DNA of 64,000 nucleotides from Tissierellia bacterium (GTDB taxonomy: Bacteria; Bacillota; Clostridia; Tissierellales; Peptoniphilaceae). This document shows, in pieces, positions 4,373 through 31,329 of the stretch. The notes under the pieces were generated by a model. That model was not told where the DNA came from. It searched no databases and saw nothing but the letters and a program-made list of their open reading frames with translations. The number at the start of each line of letters is the position of its first letter. The first letter of the stretch is position 1. The DNA is taken from the NCBI GenBank assembly GCA_012728755.1, contig JAAYEL010000020.1, forward strand, positions 723-64,722, given 5' to 3'. Position numbers and translations under genes: made by a program.

Positions 4373-4387
4373 AATTTCGTTGGAAAC

Positions 4388-4412: not shown

Positions 4413-4505
4413 ATGGGAAATATAATTAGGTCGTGAGGCATTTTACAGGGTTGATAATTAGAGATATATAATATATGATAAAAGAAAAGAATAGGAGGAT
4501 TACGA

Positions 4506-4841
4506 ATGAGTAAAGTAGTATTTTTTGCATTTAGAAATCACGCTATGTGTTTTCAACATTTATTATTGAACGCTTTTGATATCATTGAAAAGGGTGGAGA
4601 AGCAAAGATAGTTTTTGAAGGGGAAGCGGTTAAGTTACCAGTAGAATTAGAAAGCAAAAACCCAATGTATAAAAAAGCGGTTGAACAAGGCGTTATCGCA
4701 GGTGTTTGCGAAGCATGCTCAAAAGCAATGGGAGTATATGAACAAAATAAGGAACTTGGAGTTACATTCCTATCAAGCCTAAGCGGACATCCAGCGATGG
4801 AAGATTATCTAGCAGAAGGTTATCAAGTAATAACTTTATAG
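4506..4841 (+). CDS. small DsrE/DsrF-like alpha/beta protein (putative)
   Basis: 111 aa, no TM segment. Layout resembles DsrE-family proteins with a conserved Cys pair (CEACSKA). GGAGG RBS. Confidence 0.4.
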   Translation: MSKVVFFAFRNHAMCFQHLLLNAFDIIEKGGEAKIVFEGEAVKLPVELESKNPMYKKAVEQGVIAGVCEACSKAMGVYEQNKELGVTFLSSLSGHPAMEDYLAEGYQVITL

Positions 4842-4856
4842 GATACATAGAAACAA

Positions 4857-4894
4857 TAAAAAAAGGGGCTGAACTTTGCAACAGCCCCTTTTTT
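4857..4894. terminator. bidirectional intrinsic terminator (copy 1 of a duplicated hairpin)
   Basis: A-run, GGGGCTG-AACTTTGCAA-CAGCCCC, T-run. Confidence 0.8.
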
Positions 4895-4896
4895 GT

Positions 4897-5330
4897 ATAT
4901 GAAAGAGGCTTACTTCGAAAGCTTCTATATTAATAGCACAGGGAAGTGACCTCGGTCGCTATTTTTCTTTTAAAAGTGTGGGGATGACATGCTAGTTTGC
5001 TATAAACTCTGAAACTAGCACGTAGAAAACTATCTGTAACAACGTGCTAGTTTAGACGAAAACCCGAAACTAGCACGTTGAAAATGGCATATAACAACAT
5101 GCTAGTTTAACCAAAACCCCGAAACTAGCACGTAAAAGTGTCTAATAACCTACATGCTAGTTAAACCAAAACCTCAAAACTAGCACGTAAAAGTGTCTAA
5201 TAACCTACATGCTAGTTTCCCAAAATCCCAAAACTAGCACGTAACCCCGTCCTAGAATGTGAGTTTTCGCTCGCGAAAACTTCCTCTTTTATCTTTGAAA
5301 GCGACCAAGGTCGATCACATTTCATAAAAC
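4897..5330. repeat. modular palindromic intergenic element (flank palindromes + 5-unit hairpin array + flank palindromes)
   Basis: Flank palindromes at 4904-4926, 4945-4960, 5263-5280 and 5300-5313. The same palindrome types bracket the arrays at 13.4-14.5 kb and 54.7-55.1 kb. Confidence 0.85.
4987..5243. repeat. tandem hairpin array, 5 units of 55 bp (stem family ACGTGCTAGTTT)
   Basis: Unit is AC(A/G)TGCTAGTTT - 13 nt C/A-rich loop - AAACTAGCACGT. Left arms start at 4987, 5042, 5097, 5152 and 5207. Confidence 0.95.
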
Positions 5331-5363
5331 AAAAAAGGGGCTGGATTTTGCAACAGCCCCTTT
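5331..5363 (-). terminator. intrinsic terminator of the permease gene (copy 2 of the duplicated hairpin)
   Basis: GGGGCTG-GATTTTGCAA-CAGCCCC with an A-run on the plus strand (U-run on the minus strand). Near-identical to 4857-4894. Confidence 0.8.
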
Positions 5364-5374
5364 CTATACTTATT

Positions 5375-8300
5375 CTAGTCTACAGCCTTTAAGGCTTCAA
5401 CCATATTTATTCTGTTCATCTCGCGTCTAGCAGCAAGCATTACTAGTAAAGTAAATGCTGTAACTATAAGCATTGCATATAGATAGCTTATAGGGTTCAT
5501 AAATGGGTTAAATAGAAATGCTCCAGGTGATAACGAATATACGATTATCAAATGCATTATCCTAGCTAGTCCCATACCTACTAACATACCTATAAAGGTA
5601 AGAATATAGTTTTCCTTAAAGATATACGATGCTACTTCGTGCGGTCTAAAACCTAATACTTTTATCGTTGATATCTCTCTAATTCTTTCTGAAATATTTA
5701 TATTAGTTAAATTATATAGTACTACGAAAGTTAATAAAGCTGAGATTCCTATGATTAAAACAATTATCACATTAAGGGATTCACTCAAGCTTGTTAGAGT
5801 CTCTTCCATATCCAATACCGGCATGAAATTAATGTTAGCATCATAGTCATTTAGTTTCTTTTCAAAATCATTCATGCTACTTTCATCTGAATTATTTAGC
5901 TTTATTAATAGAGTATTTTGATCTTGCTTATCATCAACACTTTTTAGATACGTTTTTTCACTCATATAGATTTGGTGGTTAAAGTATTGTTCAGTGATAG
6001 CCATTATCTCAAATTCTCTTTGAATACCATTAGAATCCTTAAATCTAAATCTATCGCCAACACCCTTACCAACAGCTTTTGAAAGCTTTTCGCTTATGAT
6101 AACATATCCATCTTTTAAGATGTAGTTTTCGCTTGAAGTCCTATCTTTTAGAGAGATGAAATTATTGATATCACTTATCTTATCAGTGGCCACAACATTA
6201 ATATCTTCATTAAATCCAGAAGGTGTTTTCGCGCTACCTGTCTGATATATGATGCTTAAATATCCATTTGAATCTTTATCAAGGAATTTAATCATATCTT
6301 CATAGTCATCAGCATTTTTATCGTATACTAACTGAGCTTGATATTTGTATACATCTCCAAACTGCTTATCAGCTACTGTATCGATAGAGTATTGTAGCCC
6401 AAAAGCCATCGCAATTAACGCAAAACTTCCTGATACTCCAGCTATGGTCATTAACATCCTAATCTTATGTCTCATAACATTTCTAAATGAGACTTTATTT
6501 AAGAATGAAAGTTTGTTCCAAAGTAGTGGGATCTTCTCAAGTAAAGTTCTCTTAGCTTCTTTTGGAGGCTTTGGTCTCATAAGGCTTGCAGCATTTTCCC
6601 TAAGATTATTCATAATTGAGAAAATTATTGTAGATGATATTAGTACTATAGTTACTACAAATATCAATAAAGCCTTATCATATTCAAAGATCATTGGATT
6701 ATCACTTAAGTTAGTAGATGTTACATAAGCGGAGATAACTGGAGGCATAAATAGGTAATAACCTATTATGATACCAAGTATGGCGCCTATGATACCTGCT
6801 GAAAGGCCGTATGCAAGGTATTTGCCAAGTATAGTTCTTCTGCTATATCCTAAGGCTTTCATAGTACCGATTTGAGTTCTTTCTGTCTCAACCATTCTTA
6901 ATATAGTTGTCAATGTTACTAGTATAGCTACTAAGTAAAACATCAATGTGAAAATATATGAAAGGTTGTTTAAGCTTTTTGATTGGTCGATATAACTAAA
7001 GAATGCTGGATTATCATATTTCCCTTGAATGTTATATAAAGGTACTCTTAAATTATCTATATCTTTTTGTATATCTTCTATCTTTTTCTCACCATCGGCG
7101 ATTTCTTTAAGCGCATCCTTTTGTTCTTTATTAAAGGTTTCCAAACCATCTTGATACTCTTTAAGACCATCTTGATATTTCTTTTCACCATCCAAAAGTT
7201 CATTTCGAGCTTCGTCTAGTTTTTGTAAACCATCTTGTTCTTCAAAAGCTAATGTATCTCTAGATTCGTTTAGTGTCCTTTGACTATCGTCAAGTTCTCT
7301 TTGTCCTGATTCAATTTCTGCAAGTGCATCATCTAAAGTCTTTTGTCCAGATGCCTTTTGTTGGTTAAATTCTTCAAGTCCCTTTTGATATTCGGCTAAG
7401 CCGTTGTTTAGTTCTGTCTCACCATTATTTAGCTTAACAAGCGCATCATCCAAAACTTTTTTTGAATCATCCAATCGTTTTTGAGCAGCATCTAATTTTT
7501 TTGCCTCTTCTTCTAATAAAGTCTTATTATCAGATAGCTCTTTTTCTTTTTGGGCAATTAATTTAAGGCCTTCTTCGATTTGCGCCAAACCTGTATTTAC
7601 TTGATCAAGTCCACTTTGTATTTGAGTTTCATTTTTCTTAAGCTCATTAAGAGTCGTTAATGGTTCTATAAGTTGTTGTAATTGACTTACATTGCTATCT
7701 AGACTTTCTTTTACTCTACTAATGATAGCTAAAGCTTGATTAACTGATTCAATATTTGAGCCATCATTGGCTAAAAGTGATTCTGCTTGTTTAAGATTTT
7801 CTGTCATCGAAGCCATAGCAGAGTTTGATTCAGTAATAGCTATAAGTTGTCTAAGTGTTCCCAAAGCTGTTTGAAGACCTTGTTGATAGGCTTCTGGTTG
7901 TGCTACAGGGTCTATCGTAGTTAGATTTTGGACTAGAGCAACAGTACCTTTGGTTAACTCAATTAACTGGTTCAAAGAGATAATATCAGATTGAACTTTC
8001 TCCAATGTGTAGCCCTCAAGGATAGCAGCCTCTATTTGAGCGATTCCTTCTTGAACTTGTGCTAAGTTTTCATTTAATTCAGCCTTAGTTTTTTCAAGCT
8101 CTGATTTTTGAGTAAGTGCATTTTCCTTTTCGCTAGCAAGTTGTTTTTCGCCATCTTCAAGTAGTTTTCGATTCTTGTCAATCTCAGCCTTACCAGCTTC
8201 TAATTGCTTAACTCCATCATTGTATTTTTGCAGACCATCTTCATATTCTTTTCTAGAATTATCTAGCAAGGTCTTAGCATCATCTAATTCCTTTTTCCCT

Positions 8301-9391
8301 TGATTAAGGTCTTGCTGCGCTTTGATGATTTCTTCGTTAAATTCACGCAATCCATCATTATATTCTATTCGACCTTGATTTAAATCCGCTTGGCCTTCGT
8401 CGATCTTATCTTGACCTTCGGCCAGTTGCCTTTTTGCATCTTCTATCTCATCGTAAAATGTCTTTTCATTTTCTTCTAATGTCTTTTTACCATCTTCTAT
8501 TTCTTTTTTAGCATCATCTAAATCAATCTTTGCTTGATCCAGATCTTCTCTAGCTTTTTGAAGCTCTGATTTACCATCCTCAATTTCTTTTCTAGCATCG
8601 GTAAGTTCTTTATTTGCATCATCTTTTATTGAGTTTTCAACCTCTTTAGGTCTAGATTCAAATAAATAAACCAACTCATCTAAAGTTTTTGTCTCAAATA
8701 ATTTGTATTTATCTGACGCAATATCATATCCCTGATTTCTTTCCAAATGCATTATGGCATAATCAGGATAATCTTTTTTTATCACTTCGTCTTTTACAAA
8801 GCCAAAATAATTACCATCTCCAACTTGGCCATTTGCCCTTTGGTTCATGATATAGTCGACACTGTACACGTATCCAACGACTGTTAAATCCGTGTTTGTA
8901 AGTATTTTCTCGTCTTTTTCATTTTCTTTATTTGAAAAAGAAAGCAAATTACCAGTCATATCTCCATGGTCTACAAAGTGTTGATAGTCAAGAGCTATCT
9001 CATTTGGGGATTGTGGTAAGCGACCACTCTTTAGTATAGGAGTGTCTATGTCATTTGTCATAGTGTAAAATTTTATAGAATACTCACCATCTACTAAATT
9101 AAATGTATCTGTCTTTACATATTCTATTTTGTTATTGCCATCTAGCGACTTTAGTAAAGAGACATCATCATCTCGGATGCCTGTATATGAGCTAATTCGA
9201 ACATCATACATCCTATGCTCTTGAATACGAGAGACAATCATCTTTCGTAAATTAGGCACACCAGTTTGAAGTCCGATAAATACAGTCGCACTTAAAGCGG
9301 TCATCGCTATGATGGCTAGATATCTAGTCCATGAATTTTTAATTGTTCTAAATATATCCTTCCATAAGGTAGGATTAAAGTTAAATCTCAT
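5375..9391 (-). CDS. ABC transporter permease, duplicated MacB/FtsX-type, with a roughly 540-aa coiled-coil insert in the first extracytoplasmic domain
   Basis: 1338 aa. It has an N-terminal TM helix, a heptad-rich segment (residues about 245-790) and two FtsX-type helix bundles separated by a second extracytoplasmic domain. It lies immediately downstream of an ABC ATPase gene. Confidence 0.8.
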   Translation of the reverse strand: MRFNFNPTLWKDIFRTIKNSWTRYLAIIAMTALSATVFIGLQTGVPNLRKMIVSRIQEHRMYDVRISSYTGIRDDDVSLLKSLDGNNKIEYVKTDTFNLVDGEYSIKFYTMTNDIDTPILKSGRLPQSPNEIALDYQHFVDHGDMTGNLLSFSNKENEKDEKILTNTDLTVVGYVYSVDYIMNQRANGQVGDGNYFGFVKDEVIKKDYPDYAIMHLERNQGYDIASDKYKLFETKTLDELVYLFESRPKEVENSIKDDANKELTDARKEIEDGKSELQKAREDLDQAKIDLDDAKKEIEDGKKTLEENEKTFYDEIEDAKRQLAEGQDKIDEGQADLNQGRIEYNDGLREFNEEIIKAQQDLNQGKKELDDAKTLLDNSRKEYEDGLQKYNDGVKQLEAGKAEIDKNRKLLEDGEKQLASEKENALTQKSELEKTKAELNENLAQVQEGIAQIEAAILEGYTLEKVQSDIISLNQLIELTKGTVALVQNLTTIDPVAQPEAYQQGLQTALGTLRQLIAITESNSAMASMTENLKQAESLLANDGSNIESVNQALAIISRVKESLDSNVSQLQQLIEPLTTLNELKKNETQIQSGLDQVNTGLAQIEEGLKLIAQKEKELSDNKTLLEEEAKKLDAAQKRLDDSKKVLDDALVKLNNGETELNNGLAEYQKGLEEFNQQKASGQKTLDDALAEIESGQRELDDSQRTLNESRDTLAFEEQDGLQKLDEARNELLDGEKKYQDGLKEYQDGLETFNKEQKDALKEIADGEKKIEDIQKDIDNLRVPLYNIQGKYDNPAFFSYIDQSKSLNNLSYIFTLMFYLVAILVTLTTILRMVETERTQIGTMKALGYSRRTILGKYLAYGLSAGIIGAILGIIIGYYLFMPPVISAYVTSTNLSDNPMIFEYDKALLIFVVTIVLISSTIIFSIMNNLRENAASLMRPKPPKEAKRTLLEKIPLLWNKLSFLNKVSFRNVMRHKIRMLMTIAGVSGSFALIAMAFGLQYSIDTVADKQFGDVYKYQAQLVYDKNADDYEDMIKFLDKDSNGYLSIIYQTGSAKTPSGFNEDINVVATDKISDINNFISLKDRTSSENYILKDGYVIISEKLSKAVGKGVGDRFRFKDSNGIQREFEIMAITEQYFNHQIYMSEKTYLKSVDDKQDQNTLLIKLNNSDESSMNDFEKKLNDYDANINFMPVLDMEETLTSLSESLNVIIVLIIGISALLTFVVLYNLTNINISERIREISTIKVLGFRPHEVASYIFKENYILTFIGMLVGMGLARIMHLIIVYSLSPGAFLFNPFMNPISYLYAMLIVTAFTLLVMLAARREMNRINMVEALKAVD

Positions 9392-9424
9392 AGAATCACC
9401 ATCTTTTTGTAAATTTAATCTATA

Positions 9425-10126
9425 TTACCATTCAATATTTTCAATAGGTACGGGTTTTTCATTCTTAGTTGTCTTTTTTACTTTTGCATCTCTTATCTCA
9501 ATTACTTTATCAGCCATAGGCGCTACAGCGCCGTTATGAGTGATTACTATAACTGTAGTGCCAGTCTTTTTACAAGTATCGTGTAAAAGCTTAAGGATTT
9601 GCTTGCCTGTATTATAATCTAGGGCACCTGTGGGTTCGTCACATAGTAAAATTTTTGGATTCTTTGCCAAAGCCCTTGCTATGGCAACTCTTTGTTGCTC
9701 TCCTCCTGATAATTGAGAAGGAAAATTATCCAATCTATGCTCAAGGCCTACCATGCTCAAAGTTTCCTTCGGATCAAATGCATGAGGGACTATTTGAGTT
9801 GCCATCTCTACATTTTCTAGCACTGTAAGATTTGGGATAAGATTGTAAAATTGAAATACAAATCCGATGGCGAATCTTCTATAATCAGTTAGTTCTTTTT
9901 GCGAATATGAAGATACTAATTTTCCATCAACGATTATCTCTCCTTCGTCAAGAGTGTCAAGTCCACCTAGGATATTTAGGGTAGTTGATTTACCAGCACC
10001 TGATGGGCCGACAATGATAACAAATTCGCCTTCATCTATATCAAAGTTTACGCCATTATTTGCGTGGATGATATTATCACCCATCTTATAAACTTTATGT
10101 ACATCTTTAAAACTTATATATGCCAT
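9425..10126 (-). CDS. ABC transporter ATP-binding protein (MacB/LolD-type)
   Basis: 233 aa. Walker [10 protein letters not shown], signature LSGGEQQR, Walker B ILLCDEPT. Confidence 0.9.
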
Positions 10127-10253
10127 ATCTAGCCTCTTTCATAATTTTTACAAAAATTCTTCATAATTTCTTAACATCTTCTATATATATTATACTCAAG
10201 GACAAGGCTTATTGCTCAAATTTATTTTGACATGATAAGCGAAGGAGGAAAAT

Positions 10254-11648
10254 ATGAGTGATAATAATCTATTTGATTGGTTAAACAATAATGACAATGA
10301 GGACAACAAGAATAATTCAAATGAAAGTGGTTTTGAGAGTCAAGAGACTAATAGATTTAATAATATAAATCCATCCAGTATTGACTCAAACGCTGGTTCA
10401 AACGAGAGACATTTTTCAGACCATGAATATGAATTTGAAAGAGCTAAGAGGGAATTTTACGAAAATAAAGAACGAGAAGAAAAACAAAAAGAACAGGAAA
10501 AGCTAAGAGGAATCATACAAGAAGAGGTAAGAAAATCAAAACCTAAATATGGTTTTCTTAGAGCTTTAGCCCTTGTGCTTGTCGGATCTGTTATAGGTTC
10601 ATTTATAGGTTTTGGAGTAGGTAAGAGCAATGATAAGAAACAAGTGGCTATTAGCTCAAATAATCCTACATCAATAAGCATATCAGCTAATGAAGAGGTA
10701 AATGTAGAAAATGCAGTTGCTGAAAAATCTATCCCATCAGTAGTAGGGATTCAAGTTAATATAACAAGACAAGGTGGATTCTTTGGAGAGCAAATACTTC
10801 AAGGTGAAGCGATAGGTTCAGGAGTTATAGTTAGTGAAGATGGATATATCATAACAAATGCACATGTTATCGCAGATGCTACAGAAGATAATATCAATAT
10901 ACTATTTCACAATAATGATAAAGCACAAGCTAAGTTGATTTGGAAAGATGAAAATATAGATTTAGCGATAATAAAGACTGATAGTACAGGATTGACACCG
11001 ATGGAGCTTGCAGACTCAGATGATGTTAAGATAGGCGATAAAGCGATAGCTATTGGTAATCCAGTAGGTTTAAATCTTCAATCAACACTTACTTCAGGAT
11101 ATATCTCAGGTACAAATAGAAGTATTCAGATGCAAAATGGATATGTGATGGATGGGTTATTTCAAACAGATGCATCAATTAATTCAGGAAATAGCGGTGG
11201 TGCTTTAGTTAATAGCAAAGGACAACTTATCGGAATTAATACAGCAAAAGTTCAAAGCACAGATGGTATTGGTTTTGCTATACCAGTAAATGTAGCAAAA
11301 TCTATCATTAACTCAGTAATCGATAAAGGGTCATTCCAATCAGTTCAATTAGGAATTCAAGGGGTAAACCTTGATATTTACAGACAAAGATATGAATTAG
11401 ACTTTAAGGTTGATTCGACAGATGGAGTGCTAGTTATGGAAGTTGTCGATGGTGGTAATGCTTCAAGGACTGATATTAAGCCAAAAGACGTTATAGTTAG
11501 TATAGATGGAGTAAAGATTGAATCTATGAACAAACTTAAACAAGTGCTTCTGAAGTACTCAGCAAATGATAAGGCGACAATAGATATTATTAGAGACGGA
11601 AAGGTAAAACAAGTTGAGTTGACATTTTACCCTGAGTCAAACGCTTAG
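10254..11648 (+). CDS. htrA: HtrA/DegP-family trypsin-like serine protease with C-terminal PDZ domain and a disordered N-terminal tail
   Basis: 464 aa. Catalytic triad contexts TNAHV, DLAIIK and GNSGGAL. One TM helix after a low-complexity N/E/K-rich head. GGAGG RBS. Confidence 0.85.
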   Translation: MSDNNLFDWLNNNDNEDNKNNSNESGFESQETNRFNNINPSSIDSNAGSNERHFSDHEYEFERAKREFYENKEREEKQKEQEKLRGIIQEEVRKSKPKYGFLRALALVLVGSVIGSFIGFGVGKSNDKKQVAISSNNPTSISISANEEVNVENAVAEKSIPSVVGIQVNITRQGGFFGEQILQGEAIGSGVIVSEDGYIITNAHVIADATEDNINILFHNNDKAQAKLIWKDENIDLAIIKTDSTGLTPMELADSDDVKIGDKAIAIGNPVGLNLQSTLTSGYISGTNRSIQMQNGYVMDGLFQTDASINSGNSGGALVNSKGQLIGINTAKVQSTDGIGFAIPVNVAKSIINSVIDKGSFQSVQLGIQGVNLDIYRQRYELDFKVDSTDGVLVMEVVDGGNASRTDIKPKDVIVSIDGVKIESMNKLKQVLLKYSANDKATIDIIRDGKVKQVELTFYPESNA

Positions 11649-11652
11649 TTCT

Positions 11653-12333
11653 ATGTTTTCAATAGAACAGGGCTTCCTAGTAAATGGGAAGGCTCATAAG
11701 ATAAATGTATGTGAAAAAGATTTTGAGTTATTCAAAAAGAAATATTTTGAAGTAACAAGGTCTTTGACGATAGATGAGATTGTGGATTACAGCGTTAATC
11801 CAGATCAAAAAACTAGAATCATTGTGGATATCTTTTATGAAGATGAAGATGATTTTAGAAAAAAAGAAAAAGTAGTGAGATCCTTTGGGCCAATTTTCGA
11901 GATAGCTCTTGACAATACCTACCAAGAAAATGACGACAGATATCTCCTTAAATATCGAAAACAAGGAGCTTATTTTGAAAAAGAGGATGGTTATTTTAGG
12001 TTTTCATTAGGTGATTCTAATGAACCAAGTATAAGCTTTTCGATGATTGCATTAGTATATGCGCTAATTTATGAAGGGATAATTCTTCAAAAATTAGATG
12101 AAAAATTTGAACGCATCACACCCGCAATCATAGACGGTGGCTACAATTCAGCCTCATTCAATGGTCTTCAAGGTTACTATTTTTCAAATTACTTTGTAAA
12201 ATGGCTTTTAGATATAAAGAGCCTCGCTAATAAATATTCTTCAATTGATGGAGCAGAATTTGATCCATTATATGCATTAATATGGAATTTAGAAAATCCA
12301 AAAGATGCGATGCTAAATAATAAAAACATTTAG
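11653..12333 (+). CDS. hypothetical protein
   Basis: 226-aa ORF starting 5 nt after the htrA stop. No convincing RBS and no motif I recognise; codon usage matches the neighbours. Confidence 0.4.
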   Translation: MFSIEQGFLVNGKAHKINVCEKDFELFKKKYFEVTRSLTIDEIVDYSVNPDQKTRIIVDIFYEDEDDFRKKEKVVRSFGPIFEIALDNTYQENDDRYLLKYRKQGAYFEKEDGYFRFSLGDSNEPSISFSMIALVYALIYEGIILQKLDEKFERITPAIIDGGYNSASFNGLQGYYFSNYFVKWLLDIKSLANKYSSIDGAEFDPLYALIWNLENPKDAMLNNKNI

Positions 12334-12424
12334 TTATAGGATAAATTTGCATGCAAAATTTTCATGAAAAAACTTATAAACAAGTTGCCCACAAAAAATA
12401 GAATAAGAATTGGCTAAATAACGG

Positions 12425-12457
12425 TTATCCACAAGTTATCCACAAAAATGTGGATAA
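12425..12457. promoter_or_regulatory. cluster of three perfect DnaA boxes
   Basis: TTATCCACA at 12425-12433 and 12436-12444, and TGTGGATAA at 12449-12457. A degenerate box TTGCCCACA lies at 12385-12393. Confidence 0.7.
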
Positions 12458-12465
12458 CTTTTTTT
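12435..12465 (+). terminator. intrinsic terminator built from two inverted DnaA boxes
   Basis: GTTATCCACA-AAAA-TGTGGATAAC followed by TTTTTTT. Confidence 0.65.
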
Positions 12466-12618
12466 GTTTTCGGTGACTTCATAAATATTAGGCAACGTTT
12501 AGAAAATTAATTATGCAAAATATTTTACCTTTTTTAGATGAAAAATTACGAAAATTTTTGTTAAAAGATATCTAATATGGGTAAATTAGAAATAACAACC
12601 AAATAAGGAGGGAACACC

Positions 12619-13155
12619 ATGAAAATTAATTATGTGGGAAAAAACATTACTATCAGAGAAAACTTTAAAGAAACTGTAGAAAAGAAGCTTCTAAGACTTG
12701 ATAAGTTCTTCGATGAAGATGTTGAGATGAAGGCAACATTCTCAACAATAGGAAACTTTAAGACTGTCGAAGTAACGATTTGGTTGAAATCAGGTACGAT
12801 AATTAGAACGGAAGAAACTTCTGACGATATGCTAGCATCTGTTGATATGGCAGTTGAATCTCTTGATGGTCAGTTAAGAAAATACAAAACAAAACTTAAA
12901 GCAAAGAAAACAAATGAATCAATTAGATTTGATCAAGTAGCCGAAGATGAAGAAACATTGTCAGAAGACGATAAGCCAAATATAGTAAGAGTAAAAGAAA
13001 TAGGCTTAAAACCAATGTTTGTTGAAGATGCAGTAATGCAAATGGAATTATTAGGACACGATTTCTTCGTATACGAAGATGCAGAAACAAACCTTGTTTC
13101 AGTAGTATACAAAAGAAACGATGGCAACTTTGGATTGATTGAACCAAGAAGATAA
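12619..13155 (+). CDS. hpf: ribosome hibernation promoting factor, long form
   Basis: 178 aa. MKINYVGKNITI start, an N-terminal RaiA/HPF fold and a C-terminal dimerisation domain. AAGGAGGG RBS. Confidence 0.9.
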   Translation: MKINYVGKNITIRENFKETVEKKLLRLDKFFDEDVEMKATFSTIGNFKTVEVTIWLKSGTIIRTEETSDDMLASVDMAVESLDGQLRKYKTKLKAKKTNESIRFDQVAEDEETLSEDDKPNIVRVKEIGLKPMFVEDAVMQMELLGHDFFVYEDAETNLVSVVYKRNDGNFGLIEPRR

Positions 13156-13190
13156 ACTTTTCCATGAAAGGATCCCAGCTGCAGTGTCTT

Positions 13191-13337
13191 TTCGAATTCA
13201 AATTTTTCGAGAGCTGGTCCTCAGGGCGAGGCTTGTTAAATAAATAAAACGTTCGCTGTTCATATATTGAGCAGCGATTTTTTTTATTTAATCGTCGCTT
13301 CATCCCTTGCGGAGGCTTCAAAAAATTTGAATTCGAA
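13191..13337. repeat. palindromic cassette enclosing the hpf terminator
   Basis: Perfect 17-bp inverted repeat TTCGAATTCAAATTTTT (13191-13207) / AAAAATTTGAATTCGAA (13321-13337). The left 34 nt recur in inverted orientation at 35318-35351 (29 of 34 identical). Confidence 0.8.
13253..13285 (+). terminator. intrinsic terminator of hpf
   Basis: TCGCTGTTCA-TATAT-TGAGCAGCGA followed by TTTTTTTT. Confidence 0.8.
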
Positions 13338-22447: not shown

Positions 22448-22476
22448 TTGACAATGTATTCAAAAGTTATTATAAT
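22448..22476 (+). promoter_or_regulatory. consensus sigma-A promoter of the Opp-type operon
   Basis: TTGACA (22448-22453) - 17 nt - TATAAT (22471-22476). Confidence 0.7.
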
Positions 22477-22533: not shown

Positions 22534-24876
22534 ATGAAATCAACTAAAAAATTATTAGCTTTGTTATTGGCTTTAGTTTTAGTTCTAGCAGCTTGTGGTC
22601 CAACTACAACTCCAGAAGAACCAACTAAACCAACAGAAGGCGAAACGCCAACTGAACCAACAGAGCCAACTGAACCAACAGGTGAAGAGCCAACTGGTGA
22701 AGAAACACCTGAAGATCCAGCAGTAGCAGGCGTACAAAAGTTTGCTGACGCTGAAACTCTTGTAGTAGGAGCTCCAGAACTAAGTGGTGACTATATTAAT
22801 GGTTTTGGTAATTCAAGCTATGACGTTTGGATTAAAAACCTTATAGGAACTTATGGTGGTGAATTAGGATACGCAACTATCTATTCAAATGCTAATGGCG
22901 AATTTGTAAACAACCCAACGGTTCAAGCACAAGACCCAGAAGTAACTACAAACGCAGATGGATCAAAAACTTACAGATTCTTCTTAAAAGATGGTCTAGT
23001 ATGGAATGATGGTACACCAATCACAGCTAAAGACTATGTATTCGGTACATTCTTTACTTCATCTCCAGAATGGGGAACAACAGGTTCTCAAAACAACAAC
23101 TCTGGTGAAGATTTAGTAGGATTCGTTGATTATAACGAAGGAAAAACTAGAACATTCCCAGGATTAAATCTAGTTGATGAAAAAACTTTTGAAATCACTT
23201 TAGATGCTTCAAAAGTACCTTACTTCTTCGAAACAGCTTTAGTAGCTACATCTCCAACTCCAATGCATAGATACGCTCCAAACCTAGATATCGTTGGTAG
23301 CGAACTTGTAGTAGAAGAAGGATATACAGTAACTGATGCAGATAAAGCTTTATTAGTAACTGGTCAAGAAGACGTAGTTGAAGCAGCTAAGACAACTCAT
23401 GATGCTGAAGTTAAAGCAGTAACTGATGCAGCAAATGCTACACCAGAAGAAGAAACAGAAGAAACTAAAGCAGCTAAAGAAGCAGCTCAAAAAGTATTAG
23501 ATGATTTTAACGCTTTAGTAGAAGCAGGAACTTTACAAGAAACATTGGATGCAGCTAATGCTGAAGGTGGCACTCCACTTGATCCAAAACTTGATACACT
23601 TGTAAAAACAAAATTAGCTTTAACAGCTGAAGAAACTAAATTAGCTGGATATAAAGATGGTACTATTGAATTAGAACCAATCAACTTATTAATGACAGCT
23701 GCAGCAAACGACATAGCTTATACTTATAGATTTAAGCCAGACGTAACTGCTGGACCATACAACTTCGTTTCATTAGAAAACGGTATGGCTAAAGTAACAT
23801 TAAATGACAAATTCGTTGGTAACGCAAGCGGCAAAAAACCAACAATCAAAAACGTTATAGTACAAACAGTTCAAGCAACAATCGACGTTGACTTAGTAAT
23901 AGCTGGTACTGTAGACTTAGCTCCTGGCGTTATCGAAGGTGCTAAGATAAACAAAGCAAAACAAACTCCAGATAAAGTTGGTATGGCAACATACTACAGA
24001 AACGGTTACGGAGTTATGCCTATATTAACTCATATGGGAGCAACACAACATAAAGGTGTTAGACAAGCAATTGCTTACTCACTTGATAGAACAGGATTCG
24101 TTCAAACTATCGCAGAAGGTTACGGAACAGTTGTTAACGGAGCTTTCGGTGTTGACCAATGGGAATATGTAGATGCTACTGAAGAAGGTAAATTAGATGA
24201 TTTAATCAACTATACAGTAAACGTGACAGCTGCAAATGCTGCATTAGATACTACTCCTTATAAATTCGAAAAAGATGGTACTACACCATGGGATGCTGAA
24301 AAAGCAGCTACAGAATTTGCATCAAATTCTGACGGATTTAGCTATTGGAGATATGACGCTGAAGGTAACCAATTAAGAGTTATCCACGAAGGTACAGTTG
24401 ATAATACAGTTACTGACTTAATTAATACTCAATTACCAAATAACGCAAAAGCAGTTGGTATGCAATATATTATTAATGCAGTTGACTTTGCTACATTATT
24501 AAATCACTACTACTATCCAAAAACTGATGACAAAGAAGCTCCAACAGTATTCAACATGGGTAACGGATTTGGTACTCCAAACGATCCTTACTATTCATGG
24601 CATAGTTCTCAAATCGGTGCAGGAAACTTATCAAATGTTAACGATCCTGAACTTGATAAAGTATTAGATACTATGAGAAAAGCTGATGCTACTGATAGAG
24701 AAACTTGGTTAAACGGTTGGGTAACTTTCCAACATTGGTATAATGAAAACATGCCAGCAATACCTCTATATGGTAATGAATATCATGATATTCATACTTC
24801 AAGAGTACAAGGATTAGAAACTACACCATTCTATGATTGGTCATATGTAATTACTAATCTTACACTTGCTCAATAA
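22534..24876 (+). CDS. ABC transporter substrate-binding lipoprotein, family 5 (Opp/Dpp-type), enlarged
   Basis: 780 aa. Lipobox LAAC, a Pro/Thr/Glu-rich tether (residues about 22-62), an SBP_bac_5-like core and an Ala/Glu-rich helical insert (about 23330-23660). Confidence 0.85.
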   Translation: MKSTKKLLALLLALVLVLAACGPTTTPEEPTKPTEGETPTEPTEPTEPTGEEPTGEETPEDPAVAGVQKFADAETLVVGAPELSGDYINGFGNSSYDVWIKNLIGTYGGELGYATIYSNANGEFVNNPTVQAQDPEVTTNADGSKTYRFFLKDGLVWNDGTPITAKDYVFGTFFTSSPEWGTTGSQNNNSGEDLVGFVDYNEGKTRTFPGLNLVDEKTFEITLDASKVPYFFETALVATSPTPMHRYAPNLDIVGSELVVEEGYTVTDADKALLVTGQEDVVEAAKTTHDAEVKAVTDAANATPEEETEETKAAKEAAQKVLDDFNALVEAGTLQETLDAANAEGGTPLDPKLDTLVKTKLALTAEETKLAGYKDGTIELEPINLLMTAAANDIAYTYRFKPDVTAGPYNFVSLENGMAKVTLNDKFVGNASGKKPTIKNVIVQTVQATIDVDLVIAGTVDLAPGVIEGAKINKAKQTPDKVGMATYYRNGYGVMPILTHMGATQHKGVRQAIAYSLDRTGFVQTIAEGYGTVVNGAFGVDQWEYVDATEEGKLDDLINYTVNVTAANAALDTTPYKFEKDGTTPWDAEKAATEFASNSDGFSYWRYDAEGNQLRVIHEGTVDNTVTDLINTQLPNNAKAVGMQYIINAVDFATLLNHYYYPKTDDKEAPTVFNMGNGFGTPNDPYYSWHSSQIGAGNLSNVNDPELDKVLDTMRKADATDRETWLNGWVTFQHWYNENMPAIPLYGNEYHDIHTSRVQGLETTPFYDWSYVITNLTLAQ

Positions 24877-26078: not shown

Positions 26079-27917
26079 ATGTTAGAAAAAATTAAAAACA
26101 TATTTAGAAAAAGCGATAAGCCTAGTGAAGTTGACGTAGAGACTTTATTAAAGGAAGAAGCTATTACTTCTCCTGCAAAACAAATAGTAAAAAGATTTTT
26201 CCAAAACAAATTGGGAGTAATTGGTCTTGTTGGATTCCTAGCAATTGTATTAACAGTTTTTATAGGATCATCACTTTTAAAGTATGATGCATATTATTCA
26301 CAAGGCGTTATGAAAAACATCGGAACTGGTTCAGGATACATGAACATTCCAAATCAATTAGAAAAAGAAGGTATAAAGAAGATTGATATTGGTACTACTT
26401 TTTCGATTGGTTTATCAAAAGAAAATAACTTCTTTGTATGGGGTTATTATGAACCTCAATTAGGAGAGGTGCCAGAGGCTGCTACTGCAGTACAAGGTAA
26501 GGTTAAAGATATAGCTGCCGGTGATAAGCATGTATTGATATTAACTGAAGATAATAAAATCATTGGATGGGGAGATAATGCTCATGGACAAATAGAGCAT
26601 CCAACTGATTTCGATAAATTGATAGAAGAAGAAGGAATCTCATATATTGGAGCAGGAGATCTTTATTCAGTACTTTTAACTGATAAAGGAACATTTAAGG
26701 CTTGGGGAGCTACTTTACCTACAAACCTTCATAGAATTAGTACAGCATATAATCAAAATATCGCATATGTAGAAGAAGGTTCAGTAGACGTATTAGCTCT
26801 TACAAAAGACGGACGTGTTGTTGTATTAGGACAAAAAGGTTCTGAGCTTGACACAGCGCTACCTGAAGAAATAGGTAGAAATGGAACTGTTAAGATAGTA
26901 GAAATAGGCAGGATGAGATACTCAGGTGCAGCAGTTGACGAAAATGGTAAACTATATACTTGGGGATCAAGCTTAGATGGTGCGAATAAAGCGCCAGAAA
27001 TTGATGGAAAAGTAATTAAATTAGAATCTGGTAGAGAAAGTATAGTGGCTCTTACAGATACAGGCAAAGTATATGCTTGGGGAAATAATAACTACGGTAC
27101 TTTAGATTATCCTAAGGATGATGGATATAAAAACATATTTGCAGGATTCTTTAATAATTATGCTATAAAAGAAAGTGACACAGGTGAGACTCAATCAGTA
27201 TCTACTTGGGGACTTGACGGTTTCATAATGGGATCTGATGAGCAAGGTAGAGACTTATTTACTCGTTTAGTAAACGGTGGTAAGATGACTTTATTAATCG
27301 CTTTAGTAGCTGTAGTAATTCAAATAGTTATCGGGGTAACTGTAGGGGTTGTGGCAGGATTCTATGGTGGAGTTGTAGATAACATACTTATGAGATTTGC
27401 GGAAGTTGTTGCATCTTTCCCATTTTACCCACTAATTATCACTATATCTGCATTGTTGCCTGTGGATACGTCTCAATACACTAGATTAATTATGATAATG
27501 TTTATATTAGGTATATTGAACTGGACTGGTATCGCTAGACTTGTTCGTGGAGAGATATTATCAGAAAGACAAAAAGACTATATAACAGCAGCAAAAGCAT
27601 TAGGGTTAAAAGAAAGCAAGATAATGGCGAGCCATATGGTTCCAAACATTATTTCTATTATCATAGTACAAGCTACTTTAGGATATGCAGGAAGTTTATT
27701 ATCAGAAGCAGGATTATCATTCCTTGGTTTTGGTGTTAAAGATCCATTCCCATCTTGGGGAAATATGCTTTCTAAAGCTAATGAAGTAGCCGTTCTAGAA
27801 ACTTACTGGTGGCGTTGGGTATTCCCTGGTTTATCGGTATTCTTAACAGCTTTAACAGTTAACTTTATAGGTGATGCGTTAAGAGACGCTATGGACCCTA
27901 AAGCGCTAGAAAGGTAG
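26079..27917 (+). CDS. Opp/Dpp-type ABC permease (OppC-like) with a seven-repeat RCC1-like beta-propeller inserted in the first extracytoplasmic loop
   Basis: 612 aa. TM1 at residues about 45-67. Seven repeats at residues about 95-385 end in WG-type motifs (VWGYY, GWGDNAHGQ, AWGATL, VLGQKG, TWGSSLDG, AWGNNNYG, TWGLDG). The canonical OppC body follows, starting GSDEQGRDLFTRLV. Confidence 0.8.
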   Translation: MLEKIKNIFRKSDKPSEVDVETLLKEEAITSPAKQIVKRFFQNKLGVIGLVGFLAIVLTVFIGSSLLKYDAYYSQGVMKNIGTGSGYMNIPNQLEKEGIKKIDIGTTFSIGLSKENNFFVWGYYEPQLGEVPEAATAVQGKVKDIAAGDKHVLILTEDNKIIGWGDNAHGQIEHPTDFDKLIEEEGISYIGAGDLYSVLLTDKGTFKAWGATLPTNLHRISTAYNQNIAYVEEGSVDVLALTKDGRVVVLGQKGSELDTALPEEIGRNGTVKIVEIGRMRYSGAAVDENGKLYTWGSSLDGANKAPEIDGKVIKLESGRESIVALTDTGKVYAWGNNNYGTLDYPKDDGYKNIFAGFFNNYAIKESDTGETQSVSTWGLDGFIMGSDEQGRDLFTRLVNGGKMTLLIALVAVVIQIVIGVTVGVVAGFYGGVVDNILMRFAEVVASFPFYPLIITISALLPVDTSQYTRLIMIMFILGILNWTGIARLVRGEILSERQKDYITAAKALGLKESKIMASHMVPNIISIIIVQATLGYAGSLLSEAGLSFLGFGVKDPFPSWGNMLSKANEVAVLETYWWRWVFPGLSVFLTALTVNFIGDALRDAMDPKALER

Positions 27918-27922: not shown

Positions 27923-28921
27923 ATGTCATTACTAGAAATTAAAAATTTACACACATATTTCAGCACTAAAAGAGGTTTGATAAAGGCTGTTGATGGTGTT
28001 GATCTAACGATCGAAGAAGGACGTACACTTGGTGTAGTAGGTGAGTCTGGTTCAGGAAAGAGCCAAACAGCGATGAGTATCTTACAATTATTTGAACCAA
28101 ACCAAAAAATTCATAATGGTGAGATTATTTTCGATGGCAACAAGATTTCTGAATATAATACAAAACAATTGGAAAATGTTAGAGGTAATGAAGTATCAAT
28201 AATTTTCCAAGAACCTATGACTTCTTTGAATCCAGTATTTACAGTAGAAAGACAACTTAGTGAAGCATTTATGCTTCATCAAGGTATGAATAAAAAAGAA
28301 GCAGCATTAAACTCAGTAAAGATGCTTGAGATGGTTAAGATCCCTAACCCAGATGTAGTAGTTAAACAATATCCGTTTGAACTTTCTGGTGGGATGAACC
28401 AAAGAGTTATGATCGCGATGGCATTGGCATGTAAACCAAAATTACTAATTGCCGATGAACCAACGACAGCTCTTGACGTTACTATTCAAGCCCAAATATT
28501 GAAGTTAATGAACGATTTAAAAGCAGAAACAAATACAGCTATTATGTTTATCACTCACGATTTAGGAGTTATAAACCAAATGGCAGATGATGTAGCAGTT
28601 ATGTATGCTGGACAAGTAGTAGAACAAGCTCCAGTAGACTATATATTTGATGGATCAATGACTAAGTATTCTCATCCTTATACGGAAGGTCTACTTGCAT
28701 CAATCCCATCAATCACATCAAAAAGAGATGAAAGATTAGATACGATTCCAGGCTCTGTACCTCATCCATTGGCTATGCCGAATGGTTGTAGATTTGCAGA
28801 TAGATGTAAATATGCTACTCAAAAATGTAAAGATAATATGCCTGAGCTTGAAGAAGTAACTAAAGGGCAATTTATCAGATGTTTCTATCCTGAAAAGGGG
28901 GTAAGAAGTAGTGGAAAATAA
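27923..28921 (+). CDS. Opp/Dpp-type ABC ATP-binding protein (OppD-like)
   Basis: 332 aa. Walker A GESGSGKSQ, signature LSGGMNQR, and a C-terminal oligopeptide-type extension containing a Cys cluster. Confidence 0.9.
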   Translation: MSLLEIKNLHTYFSTKRGLIKAVDGVDLTIEEGRTLGVVGESGSGKSQTAMSILQLFEPNQKIHNGEIIFDGNKISEYNTKQLENVRGNEVSIIFQEPMTSLNPVFTVERQLSEAFMLHQGMNKKEAALNSVKMLEMVKIPNPDVVVKQYPFELSGGMNQRVMIAMALACKPKLLIADEPTTALDVTIQAQILKLMNDLKAETNTAIMFITHDLGVINQMADDVAVMYAGQVVEQAPVDYIFDGSMTKYSHPYTEGLLASIPSITSKRDERLDTIPGSVPHPLAMPNGCRFADRCKYATQKCKDNMPELEEVTKGQFIRCFYPEKGVRSSGK

Positions 28922-30530
28922 AAACGAAAAGAAGGTATTGTTTTCGGTAAAAAACCTAAAAAAATACTTCCCATTAAAAAAGAAACCATTTGAGAGAACA
29001 CAAAGATATGTTAGAGCGAATGAATCAATCACTTTAGATATATATGAAGGAGAGACATTAGGTCTTGTAGGAGAGTCTGGATGTGGTAAATCTACATTTG
29101 GAAGAACTATCATTCAGTTATATGAACAAACTGGTGGATCTACTTTATACTATGGAAGAACATTGGCTGATTTTGCTCCAAAATACGCGGCTAAAGTTAT
29201 AAAGGCTATTCCAAGTCTTTTCCCTAAATACTTAAAGGAAAAGCAAGAATTTGAAAAGCTAAGTGCTGAATTTGAAGCAGCTGAAGATAAAAAGGCTATC
29301 GAATTAGAAGAAAAAGCAATTAATAAGAGAAGAGATATAGAAGAAAAATATTTCAACATGTTACGAATTGCTGGTGGACTTTTAGTTCATAATGATTTGA
29401 AAAAAGTTTCTGATACTTTATTAGAAGAATATAATGAAAAAGTTGTTGGTGCAAATATAAGAAGAGATATCGAAAAAGTAACTCTTCAAATACATGACGA
29501 CCATTTAGCTAATAAAAAAGCTGATAATGAAAGAAAACTTCAAGAACTAAATAATAAATTAGATCAACAAGTTCAAGAAATTGAAAGCAAGAGACTAAAT
29601 ACTCAAAAACTAAGAGATGAGATATCTTCAAAAGAAGGTTATGATTTCTATGAAGAGATGAAAGATACAGGAATAGATTTATCTGAATTGACTACAAATG
29701 AGATGCGTGAACTTAGAAAAGAAATGCAAATGATTTTCCAAGATCCATATTCTTCATTAGATACAAAGATGACTGTAGGTAATATAATTGGTGAAGGTGT
29801 ATTAGCACATAAGATGTTTAAGTCTAATAAATCTAAAGAATACCAAGATCATATTATTAAAGTTATGGAACAATGTGGTCTAGCAGATTACTTTATTCAT
29901 AGATATCCTCACCAATTCTCTGGTGGACAAAGACAAAGAATCGGTATAGCAAGAGCATTAGCTCTTCAACCAAAATTCATCGTAGCCGATGAAGCCGTAT
30001 CTGCGCTTGACGTATCTATTCAATCTCAAGTAATTAACTTATTACAAGACTTAAAAGAAGAAAACAACTTAACATATCTATTTATCACTCATGACTTATC
30101 AGTAGTTAAATACATTTCCGATAGGGTTGGAGTTATGTATCTAGGTAATCTAGTTGAGTTAACACAATCAGATAAATTATTTGAAAAACCACTTCATCCA
30201 TATACACAAGCTCTATTAGCAGCTATTCCTAGAACGGATGTTGAACATAATACAGAGCTATCTATACTTGAAGGTGATATCCCATCAGCGGTTAATCCAC
30301 CAAAGGGATGTAAATTCCATACAAGATGTAAATATGCTATGGACGTATGTTCTCAATTTGAACCAGCATGGAATGAACAAGAAAAAGATCATTTTGTTGC
30401 TTGTCACTTATATGCTATGGAACCTGAAGAAAGAGAACAATATATGAAAGAAGTAGATGAAAGAGTATTAGAAGAACAAAAAGCTTCTGGTAAAGCTTTC
30501 GAAAATCTAGAGGAAGTAGTTAGCGAATAA
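28911..30530 (+). CDS. Opp/Dpp-type ABC ATP-binding protein (OppF-like) with a roughly 170-aa coiled-coil insert
   Basis: 539 aa with a GTG start after GGGGG. Walker A GESGCGKST is at residue about 55, but the Q-loop context MQMIFQDP is only at about 272. Signature FSGGQRQR. Confidence 0.85.
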   Translation: MENKNEKKVLFSVKNLKKYFPLKKKPFERTQRYVRANESITLDIYEGETLGLVGESGCGKSTFGRTIIQLYEQTGGSTLYYGRTLADFAPKYAAKVIKAIPSLFPKYLKEKQEFEKLSAEFEAAEDKKAIELEEKAINKRRDIEEKYFNMLRIAGGLLVHNDLKKVSDTLLEEYNEKVVGANIRRDIEKVTLQIHDDHLANKKADNERKLQELNNKLDQQVQEIESKRLNTQKLRDEISSKEGYDFYEEMKDTGIDLSELTTNEMRELRKEMQMIFQDPYSSLDTKMTVGNIIGEGVLAHKMFKSNKSKEYQDHIIKVMEQCGLADYFIHRYPHQFSGGQRQRIGIARALALQPKFIVADEAVSALDVSIQSQVINLLQDLKEENNLTYLFITHDLSVVKYISDRVGVMYLGNLVELTQSDKLFEKPLHPYTQALLAAIPRTDVEHNTELSILEGDIPSAVNPPKGCKFHTRCKYAMDVCSQFEPAWNEQEKDHFVACHLYAMEPEEREQYMKEVDERVLEEQKASGKAFENLEEVVSE

Positions 30531-30736
30531 TGGCAAATTTATTTAGAAAACCAAAAGATGAAAGTGAATTTGCAAAACTTTCAAAGGAAGAGCAAAAAGA
30601 ACACTTAAGTAAATTGGGCGAGAATTTTACAAAGAAAGATGAACTAGCTATGTTGATAGCAGCTTTTAAGGTTTTCTTGCCACCGATTCTAGTGATCATA
30701 TTGATAATTTATTTGATTACAAAACTATTTGTATAA
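30530..30736 (+). CDS. small tail-anchored membrane protein, translationally coupled to the OppF-like gene
   Basis: 68 aa. The ATG overlaps the upstream TAA (TAATG). A charged N-terminal half is followed by a single C-terminal TM helix. Confidence 0.5.
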   Translation: MANLFRKPKDESEFAKLSKEEQKEHLSKLGENFTKKDELAMLIAAFKVFLPPILVIILIIYLITKLFV

Positions 30737-30822: not shown

Positions 30823-30850
30823 TTGATTTTTTAGCAATTTGAGCTATAAT
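30823..30850 (+). promoter_or_regulatory. sigma-A-type promoter
   Basis: TTGATT - 16 nt - TATAAT, about 90 nt upstream of the FMN-binding lipoprotein gene. Confidence 0.5.
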
Positions 30851-30939: not shown

Positions 30940-31329
30940 ATGAAGAAAATATTCGCGCTTTTATTAGTATTAACATTAGTTTTAGTTGGATGTGGACAAG
31001 GTACTTCAACTACTGACAAACCAGAAACAACAACTGGCGAAGCAAAAACTATTACTAAAACAGTAAAAGGACACAATGGAGATGTAGAAGTAACTACAAC
31101 TTTTGATGCAGCAGGAAAGATTACTGAAGTTAAAGTAGGTAAACATGAAGAAACTGAAGGTCTTTCAGACCCAGCTATCAGCGATGTTCCAAAATCAATC
31201 GTTGAAAAGAATTCAGTAGCAGTTGACACTGTTGGTGGAGCTACAGTAACTTCAAAAGCTATCATCGATGCTGTAACACAAGCTATCACAGAAGCAGGAT
31301 TTAACCCAGCTGATTATGGTGCTAAATAG
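30940..31329 (+). CDS. FMN-binding-domain lipoprotein (NqrC/RnfG-type FMN_bind)
   Basis: 129 aa. Lipobox LVGCG. Flavinylation-type motif VDTVGGATVTSKAI. GGAGG RBS. Confidence 0.75.
   Translation: MKKIFALLLVLTLVLVGCGQGTSTTDKPETTTGEAKTITKTVKGHNGDVEVTTTFDAAGKITEVKVGKHEETEGLSDPAISDVPKSIVEKNSVAVDTVGGATVTSKAIIDAVTQAITEAGFNPADYGAK

Follow-up and report, generated by a model that had tools for sequence, protein, structure and literature searches.

What does a seven-bladed beta-propeller contribute when it is built into the channel-forming subunit of a bacterial peptide importer? The question is raised by oppC, a gene at positions 26079–27917 of a 64,000-nucleotide stretch of genomic DNA from a Tissierellia bacterium (contig JAAYEL010000020.1), referred to here as the window. 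Its 612-residue product is an OppC-type ATP-binding cassette (ABC) permease that carries a domain related to RCC1 and BLIP-II. An earlier note on this DNA had assigned the domain to positions 26361–27233, an interval that corresponds to OppC residues 95–385, and its location between the first transmembrane helix (TM1) and the conserved OppC motif is borne out by our analysis. The oppA, oppB, oppC, oppD and oppF genes, together with a small sixth gene, almost certainly make up one transcription unit in this Tissierellia-class member of the Bacillota, with the OppC fusion as a subunit of a six-gene, Opp-type peptide ABC importer. For the propeller itself we favor, with a probability of roughly 0.4, a role as a fixed platform that docks or retains the substrate-binding protein (SBP) OppA or walls off the transport cavity. 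The fusion protein is laid out as follows.

26079–26279, + strand: OppC residues 1–67, cytoplasmic N-terminus and TM1 (residues 45–67), OppC_N; from Pfam, hydropathy and an AlphaFold2 (AF2) helix at residues 44–66
26280–26372, + strand: OppC residues 68–98, N-terminal connector with consensus FDPYYSQG..KNI.PG.GYM..P.EL; from a comparison of 39 homologues
26373–27221, + strand: OppC residues 99–381, seven-bladed RCC1/BLIP-II-like beta-propeller; from Pfam, AF2, Foldseek and phmmer
26373–26465, 26502–26591, 26637–26726, 26760–26849, 26895–26984, 27012–27101 and 27126–27221, + strand: blades 1–7
27207–27254, + strand: OppC residues 377–392, WGLDGFIMGSDEQGRD, last blade strand running into the conserved pre-TM2 motif; from the 39-homologue comparison
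27255–27914, + strand: OppC residues 393–612, TM2–TM6 core (BPD_transp_1) with the EAA coupling loop at residues ~490–514; from Pfam, PDB matches and hydropathy

The seven repeats quoted in the note are all present in the translation, at residues 99–129, 142–171, 187–216, 228–257, 273–302, 312–341 and 350–381, and the proposal that they belong to the RCC1/BLIP-II class and form a single propeller agrees with Pfam, AF2, Foldseek and a sequence search of the PDB. In Pfam, RCC1_2 (PF13540) scored 107.6 bits (cutoff 22, E 1.7e-31) and RCC1 (PF00415) 37.1 bits (cutoff 21.7), matches far above what chance would give. PF25390 WD40_RLD reached 124.7 bits, under its cutoff of 150, and this sub-threshold score fits a compact BLIP-II-like domain better than a long RCC1-like domain (RLD) of the eukaryotic type. 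The turns that mark the blades lie at residues 121, 164, 209, 250, 295, 334 and 377, spaced by 39–45 residues. A WG-type turn had been described for every repeat; six blades have one, and blade 4 carries L-G. In an alignment of 30 homologues with 49–79% identity, the glycine is invariant and the tryptophan invariant or nearly so at W121/G122, W164/G165, W209/G210, G251, W295/G296, W334/G335 and W377/G378.

Structure prediction from the same alignment yielded seven groups of three beta-strands, with pLDDT values of 85–94 over residues ~95–380, and in this model the seven blades close into one propeller. When the model was compared with the PDB by Foldseek, BLIP-II ranked first (3qi0_A, E 2.6e-18, TM-score 0.84 normalized to the target, 25% identity), followed by UVR8, RPGR, HERC2 and RCC1. 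The BLIP-II alignments run over 262–302 columns and cover the whole 268–273-aa chain at TM-scores of 0.76–0.84. A phmmer search placed UVR8 at about 1e-17 and BLIP-II at 3e-14. Three-stranded blades are a peculiarity of BLIP-II, and DSSP assigns three strands to each blade of the insert model. Like BLIP-II from Streptomyces exfoliatus (3qi0, 3qhy, 1jtd), then, the insert is a compact seven-bladed RCC1-type propeller with blades of ~40 aa (TM-score 0.76–0.84, 24–28% identity). BLIP-II, however, is a free secreted inhibitor of class A beta-lactamases, whereas the insert sits inside a polytopic membrane protein as one of its domains, and the genomic context of 14 loci gave no hint of Ran guanine nucleotide exchange factor (GEF) activity or beta-lactamase inhibition, nor any link to beta-lactamases. 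The eukaryotic RLDs of RCC1, UVR8, RPGR and HERC2 share the repeat family and the seven-bladed fold (Foldseek E 1e-12 to 1e-16), but have blades of 50–60 aa, match with a TM-score of only 0.45–0.64, and are intracellular GEF or protein-interaction domains. A search for the nearest stand-alone relative or donor of the insert was uninformative as to origin, since giant multi-propeller proteins, which add up score over their many repeats, dominate the results: the RCC1_2-repeat search returned 61,183 clusters, with proteins of 1,300–7,000 aa at the top.

The remainder of the protein is a permease of familiar type. Pfam detects OppC_N (PF12911) at residues 31–72 (33.7 bits, cutoff 23.9) and BPD_transp_1 (PF00528) at residues 419–608 (95.1 bits, cutoff 26.4, E 5.5e-27), and among the 30 homologues D500, Y501, A504, A505, A507, L508 and G509, and further on P522, are invariant in the region of the EAA loop. 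The conserved OppC segment that the note had identified is present; its GSDEQGRD begins at residue 385, not 386. Searched by sequence, the PDB returned E. coli DppC (8z1v_B, 4.6e-46), E. coli OppC (8z21_B, 5.1e-46) and Mycobacterium tuberculosis OppC (8j5q_C, 6.9e-37), and Foldseek matched the C-terminal half of the AF2 model to cryo-EM chains of the same three proteins. With these canonical chains the fusion shares TM1 of the OppC_N type, the G[ST]D..GRD motif, a five-helix BPD_transp_1 core that is 32–37% identical, the EAA loop and an oppABCDF operon; it departs from them in its ~310-aa propeller insert, in an extra small membrane subunit and in falling under every equivalog cutoff. The best NCBIfam model, NF045476 (Opp4C), gave 322.3 bits against a cutoff of 350, and the scores for all other models lay far below the respective cutoffs. 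By these scores the fusion is a member of the OppC/DppC family, yet the equivalog of no named transporter (Opp4C, OppC, DppC, NikC, GsiD and others).

On which side of the membrane does the propeller lie? The N-terminus before TM1 contains 10 lysine and arginine residues in 44, the insert lacks a hydrophobic segment (the maximum 19-residue Kyte-Doolittle mean is 0.66), and three TM segments lie between it and the EAA coupling loop, which is cytoplasmic because it contacts the ATPases. In the solved DppBCDF structure the TM1–TM2 region is periplasmic (PMC12136057). The three-helix spacing, the basic N-terminus and the periplasmic position of this loop in solved OppC/DppC proteins therefore place the insert outside. 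The wall-facing orientation given in the note thus stands as a predicted topology, on hydropathy, charge, AF2 helices and alignment to solved DppC/OppC, with six predicted TM helices, both termini in the cytoplasm and the TM1–TM2 loop outside.

The statement that canonical OppC/DppC proteins are about 300 aa long with a short loop at this position was confirmed by the solved chains, which measure 287–302 aa. Loop lengths were taken from the best 80 loci of a genome-contig scan, comprising 13 fusions and a remainder of mostly canonical OppC proteins. The distance from the end of TM1 to G[ST]D..GRD is 17–23 aa in most of the canonical relatives measured, with three at 78–110 aa, and 307–317 aa in the fusion family. 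A 592-aa "long OppC" at one locus (L019) proved to be a stop-to-stop open reading frame (ORF) artefact in a high-GC genome. The start of the N-terminal connector (FDPYY...) and the end of the C-terminal junction (...GF.MGSD..GRD) resemble the two ends of a canonical loop, so that it is the central part of this loop whose place the propeller has taken. The N-terminal connector is 31 aa long in 38 of 39 homologues and the C-terminal junction 16 aa in all 39, unlike the inter-blade loops, which vary from 15 to 35 aa. The blade-7 loop (ESDTGETQSVS; OppC residues 362–374, positions 27162–27200) is 13 aa long here and 8 aa in 30 of the 39 homologues, a putative lineage-specific expansion beside the membrane-proximal junction.

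The architecture is that of a large family. In a whole-protein search all of the top 120 matches combined RCC1 with BPD_transp_1, nearly all with OppC_N as well, and measured 591–664 aa except for one fragment; they came from Tissierellia, Peptoniphilaceae, Anaerococcus, Ndongobacter, Lachnospiraceae and Eubacteriales and included contigs of 1.86 and 2.08 Mb. A second search, seeded at the far edge of the family, again gave fusions in 120 of its top 120 matches (649–664 aa, one fragment), from Oscillospiraceae, Clostridia and Firmicutes metagenome-assembled genomes (MAGs). The genome-contig scan added Erysipelothrix, Erysipelotrichaceae, Oscillospiraceae, Sellimonas intestinalis and other Clostridia at identities down to 33%. 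Altogether, hundreds of homologues of 585–664 aa occur across the Bacillota, complete genomes included, and an OppC fusion 100% identical to ours, with an annotation from a Tissierellia MAG, is found on 13 contigs. Database labels for these proteins read only "ABC transporter permease subunit" or "peptide/nickel transport system permease protein". With members in Dorea, Gemmiger, Sellimonas, Anaerococcus, Erysipelotrichaceae and rumen Oscillospiraceae, the propeller design is common in gut and host-associated Firmicutes.

Relative to the window protein, family members are 27–69% identical in the propeller and 46–93% in the TM core. A neighbor-joining tree of the TM domain (217 columns, insert excluded, 17 fusions and 66 canonical relatives) groups all fusions in one clade in 193 of 200 bootstraps. 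This monophyly indicates that the insert was acquired a single time and has been retained since. Every named record of the family belongs to the Bacillota, with one exception: a truncated contig binned as Treponemataceae (Spirochaetota; L013, 3–788) opens partway through blade 7 of an OppC of the fusion type, which groups among the Bacillota fusions in the tree, reflecting either horizontal transfer or a binning error.

The window has a G+C content of about 33%, and the gene neighborhood within it comprises the following features.

22448–22476, + strand: sigma-70-type promoter, TTGACA-17-TATAAT, 12/12 consensus match, 58 nt upstream of oppA
22534–24876, + strand: oppA, lipoprotein peptide-binding protein, 780 aa
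25114–26070, + strand: oppB, canonical permease partner with an N-terminal periplasmic region (BPD_transp_1_N), 318 aa
26079–27917, + strand: oppC with the inserted propeller, 612 aa plus stop codon
27923–28921, + strand: oppD, ATPase, 332 aa; ABC_tran plus oligo_HPY (Pfam), OppD-type in NCBIfam
28911–30530, + strand: oppF, ATPase, 539 aa; OppF-type in NCBIfam, ABC_tran split in two stretches (Pfam)
30530–30736, + strand: small sixth gene, tail-anchored membrane protein, 68 aa
30739–30762, + strand: intrinsic-terminator-like hairpin that closes the operon right behind the 68-aa ORF, with a 10-bp stem and a T-run after it

The promoter is putative and was assigned by its consensus match. oppC has an AGGAGG Shine-Dalgarno sequence of its own, 4 nt upstream of the ATG and past the oppB stop codon. 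An SBP_bac_5 protein, an OppB partner and two oligo_HPY ATPases are encoded alongside the fusion, as expected of an OppC-type subunit, and NCBIfam assigns the partners to the OppB, OppD and OppF types, each match lying under its equivalog cutoff. The nearest solved structures to OppA are all peptide SBPs (9p48_A, an OppA, at 2e-25, then other OppAs, PrgZ and DppE). The system is thus, as far as its sequence tells, a peptide importer with a conventional SBP. The gene order oppA-B-C-D-F is kept in every fusion locus with enough flanking sequence. In an Erysipelothrix MAG (L004, 10806–13209) the ATPase genes are swapped, oppF-like preceding oppD-like, and the small membrane protein follows the last of them.

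OppA has a lipobox, LAAC, followed by a Pro/Thr/Glu-rich tether of ~45 aa (residues 22–66). Such lipobox OppAs are encoded in 13 of 15 operons examined, the exceptions being L011, where the N-terminus is cut off, and L017, where the lipobox was unmatched; the low-complexity tether varies from ~10 to more than 60 aa across operons. Residues 257–387 of the window OppA form a low-complexity insertion of ~130 aa, rich in Ala, Glu, Lys and Thr, that splits SBP_bac_5 in two in Pfam and looks helical by composition. In OppF, residues 90–255 make up a charged insertion of ~166 aa (40% K/R/D/E) within the nucleotide-binding domain, between Walker A and the signature motif. The idea that an enlarged OppA and an enlarged OppF always accompany the propeller did not hold up, both insertions being absent from several fusion loci. 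That of OppA is found in the window and in Anaerococcus and is missing from L004, L007, L009 and L017; orthologues in Erysipelotrichaceae, Eubacteriales and Gemmiger lack it. That of OppF is present in most family members and absent in L006, L007 and Gemmiger (L083); it aligns to long Mycoplasma (MMSYN1_0167/0168) Opp ATPase models in NCBIfam, which hints at an origin shared with Mollicutes Opp systems. An uncultured Anaerococcus locus (L003) carries tandem oppA genes of ~740 aa each, at 3620–5839 and 6142–8358, upstream of a propeller-type oppBCDF, and this suggests that several SBPs may serve one translocator.

The feature that did prove constant is the 68-aa protein. Its association with the propeller, also raised in the note, was seen in 16 of 16 checkable fusion operons and in none of 67 canonical loci, where a motif-plus-TM filter was applied in six frames; the fusion loci were themselves the source of the motif, and in the phylogeny the canonical controls lie outside the fusion clade. 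What the comparison shows is strict co-occurrence within one clade, which is distinct from functional dependence. The protein has a charged N-terminus, a juxtamembrane motif ([LF]EK[GKN]D.[LF]AM.[IL]A), a single TM helix and a C-terminal tail of 0–4 aa; the D, the A and a proline in the TM helix are invariant. A gene of this kind, encoding ~52–70 aa, directly follows the last ATPase gene in 12 of 12 seed loci with downstream sequence as well as in the window, and homologues were recovered in L001–L004, L006–L012, L017, L081, L083 and L085. Look-ups starting from three non-seed small proteins (Dorea, Gemmiger and Firmicutes HGW-10) led in all three cases to a gene right after oppF and to an OppC with the RCC1 insert. 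A profile search returned at least 261 clusters; the 120 listed are 52–92 aa long and lack a Pfam domain, and those with a name at source are almost all called "hypothetical protein". The Dorea sequence is indexed in 1,508 blocks of an assembly collection.

In the window the oppF stop and the start of the small ORF overlap as TAATG, and the small gene is predicted to be translationally coupled to oppF. Its product is most likely a sixth, membrane-embedded subunit, which may brace TM1, the propeller-bearing helix. A Pfam match to the T4 endonuclease VII dimerisation domain (E 7.9e-6) was rejected as spurious for a tail-anchored protein encoded in an opp operon whose recovered homologues carry no Pfam domain.

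How, then, might the propeller act? In the reading we favor, it would be an extracellular platform, fixed rigidly next to the site where OppA docks, and would keep the lipid-tethered OppA on the translocator or re-capture it there. A further contribution may be to wall off the outward-facing cavity, such that released peptide would enter the channel and not be lost by diffusion. OppA accompanies the fusion, and the propeller therefore adds to the SBP and does not substitute for it. The length-invariant connectors, together with the passage of the last blade strand straight into the pre-TM2 motif, argue for a fixed, membrane-close mount and not for a flexible tether. In the maltose importer MalFGK2-MalE, the P2 domain of MalF is a large folded extracytoplasmic domain in a loop of a type I importer transmembrane domain (TMD), and it docks the SBP. 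The OppC propeller could in a similar way complement the scoop motif of OppB, as MalF P2 holds maltose-binding protein; MalF P2 differs in being an Ig-like domain of ~180 aa in the TM3–TM4 loop of another transporter family, and the analogy is functional only.

A closer positional counterpart is provided by E. coli DppABCDF, in which the TM1–TM2 periplasmic region of DppB forms a scoop motif that inserts into the DppA cleft and seals the cavity, and whose deletion lowers activity, apparently through substrate escape (PMC12136057). The DppB scoop occupies the same loop position, and the TM1–TM2 loop therefore lies at the SBP interface. The resemblance is one of place, in the pseudo-symmetric partner: the B subunit bears the scoop, a helix-loop-helix of ~30 aa, whereas the C subunit bears a propeller of ~290 aa. 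No part of the system evolves faster than the propeller and OppA, whose mean distances are 0.66 and 0.62 versus 0.32–0.51 for the others.

Several results weigh against a docking platform. A mirror-tree comparison of propeller and OppA showed no specific co-variation, with a partial r of 0.11 (p 0.13) and the low power of 15 loci. In solved structures it is the B subunit that bears the scoop, and the loop of the C subunit is different, which makes the argument from pseudo-symmetry indirect. The large insertion in OppA, which might have been expected to pair with the propeller, is not conserved. And in alignments of homologues no family-specific partner-binding patch was found among the conserved propeller residues, the strongly conserved positions being generic structural ones of RCC1 repeats: the W-G turns, G.(D)H, the proline after each blade and Y361.

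The strongest competitor, though still an unlikely one, is that the propeller serves as a built-in second receptor that binds or pre-concentrates long peptides, glycopeptides or muropeptides and hands them to OppA or the channel. Beta-propellers are common ligand-binding scaffolds, and the hosts are mostly peptide-dependent anaerobes (Peptoniphilaceae, Anaerococcus), some with a PepF-type peptidase gene adjacent to the operon. To our knowledge, however, propellers of the RCC1/BLIP-II type bind proteins and not small ligands; a dedicated OppA is encoded in every fusion operon whose upstream region is present; and the propeller alignments revealed no conserved pocket or non-structural conserved patch. 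The rapid divergence of the propeller (27–69% identity) would likewise be unusual for generic recognition of a peptide backbone. A precedent for a propeller that works with an importer SBP on the outer side of the membrane is AztD of the AztABC importer, which feeds zinc to the SBP AztC; AztD, unlike the insert, is a separate soluble periplasmic zinc chaperone, belongs to another propeller family and binds metal (PMC6689063).

Somewhat less probable again is an anchor or spacer function in the envelope, in which the propeller would bind peptidoglycan, teichoic acid or an S-layer component and thereby position the transporter or keep a cavity open in the wall. The restriction of the family to Bacillota in named records, the single Treponemataceae-binned contig excepted, would suit such a role, as would the great abundance of RCC1_2 repeats in giant bacterial surface-type proteins and the faint Tectonin-type matches on the Gemmiger orthologue. 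Yet no wall-binding module (SLH, LysM, SH3b or CWB) is fused or linked to it, and with its rigid membrane-proximal mount the propeller stays no more than a few nm from the bilayer.

More speculative is a sensor, to which we assign only a slim chance. Propeller-OppC and the micro-protein would then define a distinct class of six-component Opp importer in which the propeller itself captures a ligand or partner and gates or regulates transport, and the micro-protein couples that event to the ATPases. The candidates for capture would be a (glyco)peptide of host or wall origin and a secreted protein, and the ATPases that would receive the signal often carry the large cytoplasmic insertion. Such a system would be an ABC importer with a built-in sensor, beyond an extra docking surface.

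Slimmer still is the chance that the propeller is an adaptor, recruiting a secreted or wall-bound protease, additional orphan SBPs or a signaling partner, or inhibiting an enzyme of the penicillin-binding fold in the manner of BLIP-II. The closest fold is indeed BLIP-II (TM 0.84, 25–28% identity), a picomolar protein binder; RCC1-like domains are generally protein-interaction platforms, as the UVR8, RPGR and HERC2 matches recall; and one locus, L003, has tandem oppA genes. Against this, no candidate partner gene is conserved near the operon across 14 loci, and the likeness to BLIP-II is one of fold class. Finally, the note's own caveat of a mis-joined assembly or a frameshift merger of two genes, like the further possibility of a decaying pseudogene, can for practical purposes be set aside, given a single reading frame with its own Shine-Dalgarno sequence, a domain that lies within one protein between TM1 and TM2, an identical protein on 13 contigs, and an architecture that recurs with invariant W-G turns in a monophyletic clade of hundreds of homologues that includes complete genomes.

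In Gram-positive bacteria, Opp systems are the main route of peptide nutrition, pheromone uptake and muropeptide recycling, and all mechanistic models of them that we know of come from transporters whose permeases have short outer loops. Extra domains on the TMDs of ABC importers are known, as in MalF P2 and the fusions of substrate-binding domains in OpuA and GlnPQ, and the concept of an additional TMD domain is therefore not new. As the note had supposed, no described function for this fusion was found in the literature on RCC1/BLIP-II propellers and oligopeptide permeases, and we found no description there of the inserted fold, its C-subunit TM1–TM2 position, the linked micro-protein or the size of the clade. 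The family represents a large, old and abundant clade whose translocators combine a folded ectodomain with an additional micro-subunit. Docking or retention of OppA by the propeller, the role we favor, would reveal how monoderm bacteria, which have no periplasm, manage to re-capture the SBP and to keep substrate from escaping; with a different binding partner, the propeller would be a novel type of receptor on an importer. In either case the six-gene module places an unannotated family of small proteins, with at least 261 clusters, in a setting linked to function.

When the ORFs of 14 loci were clustered all against all, no conserved neighbor came to light besides the operon genes. A Peptidase_M3 gene, encoding a PepF-type oligoendopeptidase of 562–567 aa, adjoins the propeller-type operon in Dorea (L081, 8228–9916, downstream) and in Gemmiger (L083, 1–777, upstream), which fits an oligopeptide substrate. 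A cluster of 562-aa ORFs in three seed loci may represent the same gene.

The Gemmiger locus (L083) also carries, at 8388–13311 on the − strand, a canonical opp-type operon beside the propeller-type one, encoding an SBP of 510 aa, permeases of 323 and 276 aa and two ATPases. This neighbor has neither the propeller nor the small gene, and the pair is a natural paired control.

Rfam and tRNA scans of the window returned no matches. Just downstream of the operon terminator, at 30940–31329 on the + strand, lies a gene for a 129-aa lipoprotein with an FMN_bind domain (Pfam 2.1e-16). Its position next to the operon is not conserved in other loci, and it has a promoter-like site of its own at 30823–30850.

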